NCBI GenBank assembly: GCA_963702425.1 | Contig: CAVPCQ010000038.1 | Coordinates: forward strand, 4,992-68,991 | Direction: 5' to 3' | DNA: 64,000 nucleotides | DNA from: an uncultured Acidobacteriota bacterium | GTDB lineage: Bacteria > Acidobacteriota > Polarisedimenticolia > J045 | Shown here: in pieces, positions 6,001 to 12,000 of the stretch | Position numbering within the stretch: position 1 is the first letter of the stretch | How the letters are laid out: each line of letters opens with the position of its first letter | Position numbers: made by a program

Positions 6001-9000
6001 CCGAGTTCCTCGCCGCGCGGCTGCGCGAGCACCTGGCGCGGGTGCGGCGCCGCGTCCTGTCGCTGCTCCGGATGCGGCTCGGGCCGCGCTCGGCCCAGGC
6101 CGTGGCCCGCGGCCTCGAGTCGGGACGCCCCGACCTGCGCGACAACGCGCTCGAGCTGCTCGACTCGGCCCTGCCGCGCTCGCTGCGCGCCTCGGTCGTG
6201 CCGATGCTGGAGGAGGAGCCGGCGGCGGTGCTCGAGATGCGTGCCGGGGAGCCGATCGGTTACCCTTCCCCGCGCCGCGCGCAGCTGCTGCGCGAGCTGG
6301 CGCTCGGGGCCGACCCGTGGCTCGCGGCCGCGGCGCTGCGGGTGGCCGCGGAGAGCGGGCTGGGCTGGGTCGAGGAGGTCGCGTCGCGCCGCCGCGACCA
6401 CGCGGCCACGGTCCTGGGCGAGGAAGCGCGGCGCGCGATGCGGAGGCGGGGTGGAGCCGAGGGGGAGGGACCGGGCGTGACGATGTCGCTCCTCGATCGC
6501 GCCGTGGCGCTGCGCGCGGTCGACGCCTTCCGCGGCGTCACCACCGATCAGCTCGCGCTGATCGCCGCGATCGCGGCCGAGCAGGTCCTTCCCGAGGGGA
6601 GCCTGCTGTTCGAGGAGGGGGCGCTCCCCGACAGCCTGTTCGTGGTCCTCGACGGCACCGTGTCGCTCATGCGCCAGGGCGCCCCGATGGGCACCGTCGC
6701 CGCCGGAGAAGCACTCGGCACATGGTCGCTGCTCGACGACGAGCCGCGCTCCGCGCGCGCCGTCGCGGCCACGCCGGTCCGGGTGCTGACGATCGAGCGC
6801 GAAGACTTCTACGACGTGCTCGCCGAGCACAGCGAGATCAGCCGCAGCCTGATGCGCGACCTCGTCGGACGGCTGCGCGAGCTGGCGCACTGAGCCGGCA
6901 GGGCAAGGGGAGACGATGACGGAACCGGGGAACGAGAAGGCGCAGCTGCTGGTCGTCGACGACGACGTCCTGGTCACGCGCACGCTGTCCTTCCTCTTCG
7001 CGGGCCAGGACGACTTCGCGGTCCAGATGTTCAATGATCCGCGCGCGGCGCTGCAGCACCTCGAGAGCCACTCCGTCGACGTCGTCGTCGCCGACTACCT
7101 GATGCCGGGGATGGACGGGCTGCAATTCCTGTCCGAGGTGCGCCGGACGCACCCTGCGGCGAGCCGGATCATCCTCACCGGCTACGCCGACAAGGACGCG
7201 GCGATCCGCGCGATCAACGAGGTCGGCCTCTACCACTTCCTCGAGAAGCCGTGGCGCAACGAAGAGCTGCTGCTGATCCTGCGCCACGCGGCCGAGCGGG
7301 CGCGGCTCGTGTCCGAGCTGGAGCGCCGTACCGGCGACATTGCCGCCTTCCGCGAGAAGCTGTTCCGGGCCCTCCTGTGACCGAGCCGCTCGCGGCTTGC
7401 CAGGAGCTGTTCGAGGGGCACGTCGACCCCGGTGCCCTGCTCGATGCCGGCCTCGCCGTCCTCGTGCAGAACGCCGCCGCGCGCGGGGTGTTCGGCGAAG
7501 GCGTGGGCCGGCCCTGCTACGCGCTGCACTTCGGCCGCGAGGCGCCGTGTCCCGGCTGCCGCGCCGCGGAAGTGACCCACGACGGCGCGGCGCTGCGCTG
7601 GATGATGGAGGTTGCCGGGGAGTTTCCAGGGGCGGCGCGATCCGGGGTGTGGGAGGTGACACTCATCCCGGTGAAGGATGCCGCCGGGCGCGTCACCCGG
7701 TTCGTCGAGCTGCTGCGCGACGCGACGCTGAGCCTCGGGCTGGAGCAGCATCTGATCGAACTGGCGCGGGGCCTCGACCTCGAGATTGCCCGTCGCACCA
7801 CCGAAGCCGGGGAGTTGACCCAGCGCGCGCGCGCACTGCAGGCCGAGATCGAGCGCCTCACCGAGGAGGAGGCGGATCTGCTCCGGACCGAGCGGATGGC
7901 GGCGCTGGGGCGGGTCGTTGCCGGCGTGGCGCACGAGATCCACACCCCCCTCGGCGCGATCCTCTCGACGCTGGAGATGGTCCGGGCGCGACTGGCCGAC
8001 GGGCGGGCCGACGAGCTGAGCGAACTGGTCGAACTGATGCAGGACGCCGGCGAACGGATCCGTAAGGTGGTCCGCACGCTGCGCGTCTTCTCGCGCCTCG
8101 ACGCCGCGCAGATCGAGACGGTGGACATCCACGAGGGGCTGGAGTCGTCGCTGCACCTGCTGGCGCACGAGATGCAGCCCCGGGTGGCGGCCCTGTGCGA
8201 GTACGGCGAGACCCCGCGGGTCCGCTGCCGGCCGGACCAGATCAACCAGATCTTCCTGAATATCCTGCGGAACGCCGTGCAGGCGATCGAAGGACAGGGC
8301 ACCATCACGGTGCGTACGTTCGCGCACGAGGGTGCGGCCGTGGTCGAGATCGAGGACACCGGGCCCGGGATCGCCGCCGAGAACCTGGAGCGGGTCTTCG
8401 AGGCCGGGTTCACGACCAAACCCCGCGGCGAGGGGACGGGCTGGGGCCTGTCGATCTGCCGGCGGATCGTGCACGAGCACGGCGGTGAGATCGCCGTGCG
8501 CAGCACGGTCGGGCGCGGCACGACGTTCCGCATCACGCTGCCGATCGAGGGACCGCCATGAGTTGCCCGCCCCGACGCCTCCCGTCCCTGCTCTCCTTCG
8601 TGCTCACCGCCGCGGCGGTGGGTATCGCGACGGTCCCGGCTTCGCGCGCCGGCGCGCCCGGAGACCCTCCGACGTGGCGCTACGCCGGGGTCGAGCGCGT
8701 CGTCGCGATCGGCGACGTCCACGGCAGCTACGAGCCGCTGGTCGAGGTGCTGCGCGCCGCGGGGCTGATCGACGAGGCGCTGGCCTGGAGCGGCGGCAAG
8801 GCGCACCTCGTGATGCTCGGCGACCTCGTCGACCGCGGTCCGAAGGAGCGCGAGGTGCTGGACCTCGTCATGCGGCTCGAACGCGAGGCGCCGGAAGCCG
8901 GCGGCCAGGTGCACGTGCTGCTCGGCAACCACGAGGTGATGAACCTGGTCGGCGACCTGCGCTACGTCTCGAAGGCCGGCTACGCCGAGTACGCCGAGGC

Positions 9001-12000
9001 GACCCCGCCCAGGGAGCGCGAACAGGCGCTGGCCCGCTTCATGCGGTCCGGCGGCGGCGCGGAGACCGGCCCCGAGGGGGTGCTGCCGCGGTTCAACGAG
9101 CTCTACCCGCCCGGGTACTTCGAGCGACAGAAGGCCTTCTCGGCGAGCGGCGCCTACGGCCGCTGGCTGCTCTCGAAGTCCTTCATCCTCGTGATCGACG
9201 ACGTCGCGTACGTGCACGGCGGCCTGCCGCCGAGCGTGGCCTCGGAGGGCGCGGAGGCACTCAACCGGTCGCTGATGCAGGAGATCCAGGCCTACATCAA
9301 GGCGCGCGAGACGCTGATCGAGGCCGGTCTGCTCGACCCGGAGACGAGCTTCGTCGAGTCGTTCCAGCGGGTCGGGCAGAAGGTGGAAGAGGCCGAGGCC
9401 AAGGGGCAGGCGCTGCCGGAGGCGTCTGCGAAGGCGGCCGAGACCCTGCTGGCGAGCGCGGGCGCCTACGCCTTCAGCAATGAGAACCCGTTCTGGTACC
9501 GCGGCACGTCGCTCAACCCCGAGCCGCAGGAACTGCCGGCCTTCGAGGCGGCGCTGGCGAAGCTGGGCGCGAAGTCGGTGGTCGTCGGACACACCACCAC
9601 CCCCGGCGGGCGGATCACCTCGCGCTTCGGCGGGCGCCTGCTGCGCGCGGACACGGGGATGCTGAGCGAGGTCTACCGCGGCCGCGGCGCGGCGGTCGTG
9701 GCGGAGGGCGGGACGCGGCGGACGCTCTACCCCGGCGACCCGGCGGACACCAAGCCCGTTCCCGAGACGAAGGAGGAGCCGGGTCCGATCGTCGCCCAGG
9801 GGATGCCTGACGCAGCGCTCGAGACCTTCCTGAAGACCGCCGACGTGGTCAAGATCGAGGACATCGGCTCCGGCATCACCCGGCCCAAGCGGCTGTCGCT
9901 GCAGAAGGACGGCGTTTCACGGCGCGCGGCGTTCAAGTACGTCGACGAGACGTTCGACTCGACGGTGCGCATCGCCGGCCGCCTGGAGATGCAGTTCAAC
10001 GACCGTTACATCTACGACGTCGCGGCCTACCGGCTCGACCGGCTGCTCGAGATGGACATGGTGCCGGTCGCGGTCGAGCGGACGGTCGACGGTACCGCGG
10101 GGGCGGTGCAGGACTGGATCGAGAACGCGATCGACGAGGGGCGGCGTGTGACCGAGAAGCTCGAGCCCTATGACGCCGAGTCCTTCAAGCGCCAGACCCA
10201 GGTGATGCGCGTCTTCGACGCGCTGATCTACAACGCGGACCGCAACCAGGGGAACATCCTCTACACCCCCGGGGACTGGAAGCTGCACCTGATCGACCAC
10301 ACGCGCGCGTTCCGGCTCGGCACGGGGCGCCCGCCGGGCCTCGTCGACGTGCCACTCGTGATCGAGCCCGAGCTGCGCGTGCGGCTCGCGGCACTGAACG
10401 AGGAGCAGTTGAAGTCGGCCCTCGGTGGCCTGCTGAGCAACGCGCAGATCGGCGCGATCCTGAAGCGCCGCGACAAGCTGCTGGCGGAGACGGTGCCGAA
10501 GGCGGCGCCCAAGGCACCGGCCAGCGCCGCGCCGGCCGTGAAGCGCGCCTCGTAGCCGGCGTCCCGAGCCGGCCCGCGCGGCCGCCGCGGGTCCAGGAGG
10601 CTGTCCGTGAGCGACCGCGCACGCCCGTGGCGACGGTTGGCGCTGAACACGCTCCTCGTGGTCGCGTCGGTGGCCATCGCGCTCGGGCTTGTCGACCTCC
10701 TGCTGATCGTCACGCACACCCCTGTCCACGGACCGATCTGGGAGGCTCAGGGGCTCTTCCGCCTCGATCGGGAGCTGATCTACTCGCTGGTCCCCGGTAA
10801 GAAACGGGTCTGGCGCACCGACGAGTTCGCGGAGCAGGCCTCCATCAACCGGGAGGGGCTGCGGGGCGCCGAGCTTCGGGAACGACGGGGGATCGACTCG
10901 CGCATCATCGTGACCGGCGACTCCGTCGTCTTCGGCCACGGCGTCGGCGACGGAGAGGCCTTTCCGAAGCAGCTCGAGGCGATCTTCGCGTCCGAGGGCC
11001 GCAACGTCGAGGTGCTCAACGCGGGCGTGAAAGGCTACGGCACCGACCAGTCGTTCAAGTCCTTCGATCGTCGCCTGCAGGCCCTGAAACCGGATGTCCT
11101 GGTGTTCGCCGTCAACACCAACGACGTGGCCGACAACATCCGGCAACCGCTCTATACCGTGCAGGACGGCCGGCTTCGCGAGCTCGACGCAACGCGCAAC
11201 CCGTTCTACCGGGTCGTCTGGCTCGATTCGCACCTCCCGGGGGCCGTCCGCCGCACCGACCTGTACGGGCGGCTCGTCACCCGGCTGCTCCGCGCCGACT
11301 GGGATCGCGCGCTTCCCGACAGCGACCCCGATCGGCTCAAGGCGTGGTCCCGGGAGAAGGTCGTGCTGGAGATTGAGTCGCTTCACGACCGGTCCCGGTC
11401 GGCCGGCTTCCGGCTCGTCGTGCTGGGGCTCCCCAGCACGGCGCCCAACGCGTTCCGATGGCTGCGGTCGAGCCTGCCCGAGGGCGTCGATTTCCTCGAC
11501 GCGAACGAGGTCGAAGCCTGGGCGAGCGAACCGTCCCGGTGGTTCCTGAACGACCGGACTCACCTCACCGTGGCCGGCAACGAGCGGCTCGCCCAGCGGC
11601 TCTACGCCCACCTGCTCGACACGGAGAGCCCCGCCACCGCACCATAGGACAGCCGTCGCGTCGAATGCGTGGTGGCGAGGCCGGGCCAACTCCGGGGTGG
11701 ACATGACGGTGCACGACTCGCCAGCCTTCATCCTCGGGATCTCGGCCTTCTACCACGATTCCGCCGCCTGTCTCGTGCAGGATGGCCGGATCGTCGCTGC
11801 GGCCCAGGAAGAACGCTTCACGCGCCGGAAGCACGACGCGGGATTCCCGCGGCACGCGATCGACTACTGCCTGCGCGAGGCGCGCATCGGCCCGGACCGG
11901 CTGACCGCGGTCGCCTTCTACGACAAGCCGTGGATCAAGTTCGAGCGGCTGCTCGAAACCTACCTCGCGTTCGCGCCCGGCCGGTCGTGTCCTCCTTCCT

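Follow-up and report, generated by a model that had tools for sequence, protein, structure and literature searches.

We analyzed a stretch of 64,000 nucleotides (referred to below as the window) from an uncultured Acidobacteriota bacterium (contig CAVPCQ010000038.1 of assembly GCA_963702425.1, positions 4,992 to 68,991; G+C content ~72%), which contains a gene for a predicted exported protein that joins a PPP-type metallophosphatase to a kinase-like domain (Table 1). This fusion had been proposed in a sequence-only reading of the window, and its open reading frame (ORF) as well as all motifs cited for it were found in the order described, namely GDVHG (residues 52-56), GDLVDRG (88-94) and GNHE (123-126) in the phosphatase, followed by GSGITRPKR (437-445), AAFKY with K460, NADRNQGN (559-566) and IDHTRAF (579-585) in the kinase-like domain. 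The ATG of the fusion gene overlaps the stop codon of an upstream histidine kinase gene (ATGA) and has GAGGGA located 7 nt on its 5' side. Four genes lie here on one strand, coding in order for an NTT-family transporter with HEAT repeats plus a domain for binding cyclic nucleotides (cNBD), a response regulator, a histidine kinase and the fusion, with a spacing of 22 nt and then two 4-nt overlaps. The likely start of the histidine kinase is GTG 7377, which overlaps the response regulator stop codon, the mechanical ORF start being 7251. Judged by this layout, the four genes form an apparent translationally coupled operon with the NTT gene in first position.

Table 1. Features of the phosphatase-kinase fusion gene and its neighbors in the window
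Feature	Position	Residues	Strand	Basis and remarks
Phosphatase-kinase fusion ORF (signal peptide, Shelph-type PPP phosphatase, linker, PI4KII/Fam20/HipA-like kinase domain)	8558-10555	665 plus stop	+	ORF, family and PDB matches, models
Predicted Sec-type signal peptide	8558-8650	1-31	+	Sequence reading; putative cleavage after ASRA by the -3/-1 rule
Shelph-type (Shewanella-like) PPP metallophosphatase domain	8678-9742	~41-395	+	GDVHG, GDLVDRG, GNHE, HGG 220-222, GHT 344-346, ADTG 364-367
Helical insert in phosphatase domain, three long helices	9230-9472	~225-305	+	DSSP of model: H225-255, H265-281, H288-300
Pro/Glu/Lys-rich interdomain linker, low confidence	9743-9802	~396-415	+	pLDDT <50 for residues 407-413
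Kinase-like domain, PI3/PI4K - HipA - Fam20 branch	9803-10492	~416-645	+	
Gly-rich loop GSGITRPK and beta3 ATP-binding lysine K460 (AAFKY)	9863-9937		+	Conservation; beta1-beta2 hairpin and end of beta3 in model
Catalytic segment: FD554-ALIY-N559-A-D561-R562-NQG-N566 (catalytic loop), I-D580-H-T-R583-A-F (DFG equivalent)	10217-10312		+	Conservation; FAM20A alignment
NTT/TLC ATP/ADP-transporter-family domain (~12 transmembrane segments), HEAT repeats, cyclic-nucleotide-binding domain	3678-6893	1071	+	Pfam TLC, HEAT_2, cNMP_binding; transmembrane scan
Stand-alone response regulator receiver	6916-7380	154	+	Pfam Response_reg, E 8e-25
Soluble PAS-HisKA-HATPase histidine kinase	7377-8561		+	Pfam HisKA, HATPase_c, PAS_4; no transmembrane segment
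GDSL/SGNH hydrolase, N-terminal hydrophobic segment	10607-11647		+	Starts 52 nt after the fusion gene
Carbamoyltransferase (NodU/CmcH type), split over two frames	11697-13543		+	
Small SxtJ-family membrane protein	13530-13958		+	Overlaps carbamoyltransferase end
PliI-like periplasmic lysozyme-inhibitor domain protein	14202-14852		+	After SxtJ gene

The motifs are not chance occurrences, as they are kept across 69 full-length fusion homologues with 40-91% identity, and all conservation counts for the fusion given below refer to this set. It is highly probable that the architecture, an exported Shelph phosphatase followed by a kinase-like domain, is correct. With regard to the domain boundary, the proposal of a kinase-like C-terminal domain held up, but not its start at residue 330 or its length of 300 residues: the domain begins near residue 416 and is ~250 residues long, and residues 330-395 are still phosphatase, containing the GHT and ADTG motifs and strands 379-390. 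The AlphaFold model of the full-length protein had a predicted local distance difference test (pLDDT) score of 87.8 and a predicted template modeling (pTM) score of 0.67, and a model of residues 405-665 built from 63 homologues reached 93.4 and 0.88, respectively. The lower pTM of the full-length model compared with that of the C-terminal domain alone suggests that the two domains may have no fixed orientation relative to each other.

At the N-terminus of the fusion, MSCPPRRLPSLLSFVLTAAAVGIATVPASRA followed by G, a basic n-region precedes a hydrophobic h-region and a cleavage site of the small-x-small type (ASRA/G), and residues 1-40 were modeled with low pLDDT. The same layout, with charged n-region, h-region and AxA-like site, was present immediately ahead of the phosphatase core in 66 of 69 fusion homologues, and proteins consisting of the kinase domain only usually had predicted signal peptides as well. 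Because both the fusions and the standalone proteins carry these predicted signals, export seems to characterize the kinase-like family as such, which extends family-wide, at the level of prediction, the export proposed for the window protein. The only Cys of the fusion is residue 3, within the signal peptide, and the mature protein is devoid of Cys.

In the N-terminal half, Pfam detected only the generic Metallophos domain (E 7e-13). The top PDB matches were structures of the cold-active protein-tyrosine phosphatase of Shewanella (2z72/1v73/2zbm, E 6e-32), the next PDB match being at 1e-4, and a Foldseek comparison of the full-length model with the Shewanella enzyme gave an E value of 1.7e-20. 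Matches to ApaH (~1e-10 or worse) and PrpE, both diadenosine tetraphosphate (Ap4A) hydrolases, and to bacterial Pnkp were weak. The Shewanella enzyme is the prototype of Shelph, a bacterial-like clade of PPP phosphatases for which motif definitions are available (PMC535813). The H(A/G)G motif is represented by HGG 220-222, and the bacterial-type (I/L/V)D(S/T)G motif by ADTG 364-367, in which D365, T366 and G367 were at least 90% conserved and Ala takes the place of I/L/V at the start. Metal-ligand and catalytic positions were 96-100% conserved (H55 and H220 in all 69 homologues; D53, D89, R93, H125 and H345 in 68; N124 in 67). The PPP-type assignment is therefore retained and can be made more exact on the basis of the PDB and Foldseek matches: by its motifs, the N-terminal half is a phosphatase of the Shelph clade with a complete predicted dinuclear-metal site. 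Like the Shewanella PPI/CAPTPase (1v73, 2z72), the fusion has all PPP signature motifs, the bacterial-type xD(S/T)G motif and an N-terminal export signal; it differs by a helical insert of ~80 residues (225-305) and by the attached kinase domain. The insert is absent both from the Shewanella enzyme (a gap in the 2z72 alignment) and from an unfused Shelph partner gene (L086 6828-7958). Shewanella PPI is a metal-dependent, Tyr-specific phosphomonoesterase, to which the fusion is likened by sequence and model. No Shelph-kinase fusion was found in the searchable Shelph literature, whose coverage is partial.

The C-terminal half had been described as a type-II phosphatidylinositol 4-kinase (PI4KII)-like kinase. 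We found that the modeled domain adopts a PI4KII-like kinase fold, with the Lys, the catalytic-loop DRxxxN and the metal-binding Asp, and that each motif lies on the expected kinase element of the AlphaFold models: strands 429-435 and 444-450 enclose the Gly loop, strand 453-460 has K460 at its end, the alphaC position is taken by helix 485-496, and helix 540-557 and strand 575-578 are followed by the catalytic loop and D580, respectively. A kinase fold is thus retained and a non-kinase fold is set aside, but the specific assignment to type-II PI4K is not kept, as HipA_2 and Fam20C matches were found as well. No curated model of Pfam or NCBIfam matched the C-terminal half at threshold. Its scores were 18.8-19.5 bits for PI3_PI4_kinase (PF00454, cut-off 27.1, profile positions 127-173 only), 19.2-19.8 bits for HipA_2 (PF20613, cut-off 27), 11.8-13.4 bits for Fam20C (PF06702, cut-off 26.8) and 42.1 for the SCO1664 family (NCBIfam TIGR03843, cut-off 172.4). 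In two stretches, a profile of the family matched FAM20A (2e-10), FAM20B (4e-8) and FAM20C (2e-7); its match to PI4KII reached just ~3e-3. Similarity to the solved Fam20 kinases was significant in sequence and fold and covered both lobes, and the catalytic segment aligned with FAM20A 'FDFLIGNMDRHHYE' and 'LDNARGF'. When 64 single members were scanned, 43 matched PI3_PI4_kinase, 40 HipA_2, 14 Fam20C (at E <0.01) and 4 FAM198, mostly below threshold. Because of these scattered, mostly sub-threshold matches, the sequences place the kinase-like domain in the PI3/4K - HipA - Fam20 branch, between the curated families and inside none of them.

Comparison with characterized members of this branch is consistent with such a position. 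Type-II PI4Ks carry a palmitoylated Cys-rich motif and associate with membranes on their cytosolic face, whereas the fusion is predicted to be exported and, because its mature form has no Cys, lacks such a motif; also, the window protein and most family members score below the Pfam gathering score of these kinases (PI4K2A/B; 4pla, 4hnd, 4wtv). Phosphatidylinositol is not known to be made by the host bacteria. In relation to HipA/HipA_2, the SCO1664 family, Helicobacter pylori CtkA and actin-fragmin kinase, the window protein is below every curated cut-off. HipA, SCO1664 and actin-fragmin kinases are cytoplasmic and CtkA is secreted, whereas the fusion is predicted to be exported, and unlike HipA it has no HipB-like antitoxin gene as a neighbor. 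Fam20A/B/C (5wrr, 5xom, 5yh0, 4kqa) share with the fusion the targeting out of the cytoplasm, which for the fusion is a prediction. They are, however, larger (chains of 350-470 residues versus ~250 for the window domain, which lacks the Fam20 N-terminal segment and insertions) and disulfide-rich, in contrast to the Cys-free mature fusion. In addition, the fusion is bacterial, whereas Fam20 is described as an animal family in reviews (PMC7948968), and bacteria are not mentioned in an article on Fam20 (PMC5865150). A search for bacterial Fam20 homologues in the searchable literature, with partial coverage, returned nothing relevant.

We examined whether the residues required for phosphotransfer are maintained. 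The window protein has the full canonical set, i.e., the Gly loop, beta3 K460, the alphaC acid D487, catalytic D561 and N566, and metal-binding D580. Among the fusion homologues, G439, D554, N559, R562 and R637 were invariant (69 of 69), and the remaining positions were nearly so (D580 in 68, T441 in 67, K460 and N566 in 66, P443 in 65, D561 in 63 and H581 in 62). The catalytic loop, D580, H581, R583 and R637 were also 97-100% conserved in 64 sequences, mostly of standalone homologues. The catalytic Asp and Asn, whose absence from homologues would have spoken against a kinase, are therefore conserved, and since the window protein holds the complete set, the earlier suggestion that its kinase-like domain may be a pseudokinase appears unlikely. 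A related proposal is that the domain would bind a periplasmic ligand or nucleotide without phosphotransfer and allosterically control the phosphatase, as Fam20A does with Fam20C. FAM20A, itself a pseudokinase, is the top profile match, and tandem kinase-like domains occur in the family (P0016, P0241), an arrangement which often pairs an active and an inactive copy. Moreover, in a subclade of standalone proteins (P0220, P0237, P0217, P0221, P0230, P0236) the beta3 Lys is replaced by Q or S and the alphaC acid by N, both together. Nevertheless, even this subclade retains an invariant catalytic loop and DFG-like Asp, which points to some catalysis and suggests a changed mode of nucleotide binding or a different chemistry, and the window protein, like 63-69 of the 69 fusion homologues, keeps every canonical catalytic residue. 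We consider a purely regulatory role of this kind quite improbable, and favor a catalytically competent kinase.

The sequence-only reading regarded the combination of the two domains as unusual for a free-living bacterium. This was not borne out: fusion relatives were present in at least 489 species genomes of a one-genome-per-species collection, mostly from free-living soil and marine lineages of Acidobacteriota, Gammaproteobacteria and other groups, with more than 120 near-full-length proteins among the matches listed. The hosts include Acidobacteriota, Halieaceae, Steroidobacteraceae, Woeseiaceae, Lysobacterales, Desulfatiglandales and Planctomycetota, and the closest locus (L001) is in an Acidobacteriota metagenome-assembled genome (80% identity). 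A profile of the kinase-like domain alone identified 8,942 cluster representatives (clustered at 50% identity) at E <=1e-3 and 1,240 at E <=1e-30. Members occur as standalone proteins of ~250-320 residues, as fusions and as tandem duplications, and none of the fusion or kinase-like proteins has an informative name in public sources. For example, two kinase-like domains in tandem were observed in P0016, P0014, P0018, P0020 (~900 residues) and, apparently, P0241 (671 residues); P0016 is composed of the phosphatase, a kinase-like domain and a second kinase-like domain at 637-897, with a faint FAM198 match.

The same two activities were also found as separate neighboring genes. The gene for standalone kinase P0237 adjoins that of a 377-residue Shelph-type phosphatase (32% identity over 373 residues, E 2e-60), and a Shelph gene was directly adjacent at 10 of 80 sampled standalone kinase loci, of which only ~36-38 had 1.2 kb or more of flanking sequence on a given side. 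That the same pair occurs both fused and split into adjacent genes argues that the kinase and the phosphatase work together, and an opposing-activity signaling pair, one of the roles first suggested for the fusion, remains the most plausible reading. At several standalone kinase loci (L081, L083, L086, L090, L150), genes for outer-membrane proteins that are TonB-dependent-receptor-like or contain CarboxypepD_reg and OMP_b-brl_4 domains often adjoin the kinase gene. Such proteins are abundant in Acidobacteriota, and this adjacency may be due to chance.

To identify conserved neighbors, 80 genome loci of fusion homologues were collected and all genes within 4 kb were clustered, the counts being over 77 loci. 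A TLC-like transporter was found in 41 of the 77, at a median gap of 33 nt, either upstream or downstream and in either orientation, across phyla. No other neighbor family occurred in more than 11 loci, and the TLC-family gene is thus the only broadly conserved neighbor of the fusion. By a stricter hidden Markov model search, TLC was within 300 nt in 18 of 52 loci that had at least 2.5 kb on both flanks. TLC genes also lie beside a frame-broken fusion and six standalone kinase genes, with spacing like that of an operon in two of these six. As TLC genes are few per genome and the adjacency is this frequent across phyla, the association is presumably far beyond chance. All ten neighboring transporters tested passed the Pfam TLC gathering score (23.4-86.7 bits), with the window transporter at 68 bits (PF03219, cut-off 21). 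A comparison with all PDB chains gave no matches for the window and Parahaliea transporters other than the NTT ATP/ADP carriers 9j3j and 9j3n (E 6.5e-14 and 7.9e-15), the window transporter matching chloroplast NTT1 9j3j at 6.5e-14. The fusion and the NTT gene are paired in cultured organisms as well (Parahaliea mediterranea DSM 21924, Parahaliea maris, Pseudohalioglobus lutimaris and Thioalkalivibrio sp. XN8). In loci that lack TLC, only lineage-specific housekeeping genes were found when an alternative conserved partner was sought. No NTT fused to a kinase or phosphatase (a Rosetta-stone protein) was seen among the matches listed, the ~900-residue variants containing a second kinase-like domain instead.

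The upstream gene of the window has exactly the three-domain architecture of the NTT-HEAT-cNBD proteins of free-living bacteria, whose function was left open in the paper describing them (Major et al. 2017, PMC5381601). The accessible part of the paper contains neither the word 'export' nor 'periplasm' and gives no functional partner or link to an exported enzyme, whereas here the NTT-family gene neighbors an exported kinase-phosphatase. In many linked NTT/TLC proteins, those next to gammaproteobacterial fusion genes, a C-terminal He_PIG immunoglobulin-like domain replaces the HEAT repeats and cNBD (L065 11705-13345, L026 7768-9399, L044 11550-13313, L040 11667-13409 and L060 8243-9895), an architecture that does not appear in the accessible part of PMC5381601. 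Periplasmic docking via the He_PIG domain was considered and rejected, as the domain directly follows the last transmembrane segment behind a basic stretch and is, by this sequence context, probably cytoplasmic.

The nature of this partner also bears on a further suggestion, that the protein is an effector or toxin. It would then be released to interfere with the phosphoinositides or the proteins of eukaryotic hosts or prey, or be a HipA-like toxin against competitors; the sequence-only reading had likened the two-domain polypeptide to effector logic by way of phosphoinositide manipulation. However, the conserved partner is the producer's own inner-membrane transporter; the only targeting signal is of the general Sec type; no type III, IV or VI secretion system, immunity or antitoxin genes are conserved near the fusion loci; and the mature protein, having no Cys, has no lipid-anchoring Cys-rich motif such as that of PI4KII. 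Together with the occurrence of the fusion in at least 489 mostly free-living species, these features make an effector role very improbable.

The remaining neighbors were less consistently associated with the fusion. The response regulator and histidine kinase pair is kept at the fusion only in the closest orthologous locus (L001), and we rejected it as a conserved module, regarding it as a recurring theme rather than an orthologous module. Histidine kinases flank standalone kinase genes in 12 loci, where they have six transmembrane segments and share only the catalytic core with the soluble PAS kinase of the window. In three metagenomic loci (L110, L121, L134), a standalone exported kinase is followed by a convergent histidine kinase with six transmembrane segments and then by an NTT-HEAT protein of ~920 residues, an order that echoes the layout of the window with non-orthologous histidine kinases. 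Downstream of the fusion, the GDSL/SGNH hydrolase may be on the same transcript. The carbamoyltransferase matched Carbam_trans_N positions 2-86 in the frame starting at 11697, which has a stop at 12002, and Carbam_trans_N positions 124-346 plus Carbam_trans_C in the frame of ORF 11669-13543; the break, at ~11980-12070, is either a sequencing or assembly error or the mark of a pseudogene. These two genes and the SxtJ gene were rejected as partners, not being conserved with fusion homologues, and the PliI-like gene recurs just downstream of the fusion only in L001. Besides, 11 of the 77 loci (for example, L041 12839-15073) have a gene for a Hanks-type Ser/Thr kinase with TPR repeats no more than ~1 kb away from the fusion.

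Based on these observations, we propose that the fusion is a Sec-exported two-domain enzyme of the periplasm or cell envelope, in which the C-terminal half would be an atypical kinase of the PI4KII / Fam20 / HipA branch that is competent in catalysis, as its sequence suggests, and the two halves would phosphorylate and dephosphorylate one extracytoplasmic substrate, possibly a protein, an envelope glycan or a lipid. Because an exported kinase needs a nucleotide donor and because the NTT gene is linked to it, the simplest reading is that the NTT supplies ATP. The co-encoded inner-membrane transporter would swap cytoplasmic ATP for periplasmic ADP, both providing the nucleotide and removing ADP. 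In the window, this supply may be regulated, being gated by the cytoplasmic HEAT and cNMP-binding domains and co-transcribed with the two-component pair. The closest analogy is the animal Golgi, where xylose is transiently phosphorylated by Fam20B and a phosphatase step follows to remove the phosphate. The sequences and models show the export signal, both folds, the conserved catalytic residues, the recurrent pairing of kinase and phosphatase and the linkage to NTT genes; we infer kinase activity, the substrate, ATP as donor and the outward transport of ATP, and assign a rough probability of 0.45 to a periplasmic kinase/phosphatase module that is fed ATP by an NTT.

Several points weigh against this proposal. 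The periplasm is not normally considered to hold available ATP. The linked transporters are distant NTT relatives (Pfam scores of 23-87 bits, ~20-34% identity) whose substrate is uncertain; about half of the fusion loci, including most of those in Woeseiaceae, have no TLC within 4 kb; and when the first four intact genes for standalone kinases were examined, three had no TLC gene beside them. The interdomain geometry is undefined in the full-length model, and the standalone subclade without the Lys/Glu pair indicates that not all members need be canonical kinases. Also, PamNTT1 intrinsically favors import of ATP and export of ADP, so that an exporting role would need different behavior, and co-transport of inorganic phosphate with ADP was judged unlikely for this carrier (PMC1951785). 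All characterized NTTs import nucleotides (PMC5381601). This direction of transport would fit scavenging of nucleotides or phosphate, in which the phosphatase would cleave extracellular phosphoesters or nucleotides, the kinase-like domain would bind or remodel nucleotides and the NTT would import them as nutrients, as happens in intracellular parasites, with no periplasmic cycle. The weak matches of the PPP domain to Ap4A hydrolases and Pnkp, the life of the host lineages as soil and marine-sediment heterotrophs, and the TonB-dependent-receptor-like proteins beside several standalone kinase genes are in line with such a role. On the other hand, scavenging leaves unexplained why an exported domain conserves a phosphotransfer set (K460, D561, N566 and D580), the best phosphatase match, to a protein-tyrosine phosphatase, is far ahead of ApaH, and no Pho-regulon or nucleotidase partners are conserved nearby. 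We therefore regard scavenging as unlikely and retain the ATP-fed periplasmic module as our working proposal. A search for periplasmic kinases or ATP export in the searchable literature, again with partial coverage, yielded nothing relevant.

Both folds are of known kinds. As far as the searchable literature shows, there is no description of this family of exported bacterial kinases, of its pairing with or fusion to Shelph phosphatases or of its linkage to NTT genes, although coverage of this literature was partial and this is not proof of novelty. The family is large and uncurated (~8,900 cluster representatives at 50% identity), positioned between Fam20, type-II PI4K and HipA. ATP-fed phosphorylation in the periplasm, if true, would be new in category. 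The view of an ATP-free periplasm is challenged, and made testable, by a conserved exported kinase that has an intact active site and is genetically tied to the ATP/ADP-transporter family. The linkage also provides a hypothesis for the role of NTT and NTT-HEAT-cNBD transporters in free-living bacteria, which PMC5381601 left open. As current descriptions confine Fam20 to animals, the existence of an exported relative in bacteria has a bearing on how secretory-pathway kinases originated. In its broadest form, the idea would be that many free-living Gram-negative bacteria carry out extracytoplasmic ATP-dependent phosphorylation and dephosphorylation by means of an exported Fam20/PI4KII-like kinase, a Shelph phosphatase, either fused to it or encoded next to it, and a dedicated NTT ATP/ADP exchanger feeding the periplasm, a system that would be the prokaryotic equivalent of phosphorylation in the eukaryotic secretory pathway and possibly its evolutionary source; we consider this generalization speculative and rather doubtful at present. 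Eukaryotic Shelph phosphatases reportedly reside in the endoplasmic reticulum (ER) of parasites (Toxoplasma), and the kinase-Shelph pairing suggests that kinase partners of eukaryotic ER Shelph phosphatases should be sought. Cultured hosts that have both the fusion and the NTT gene make experiments on this system feasible.

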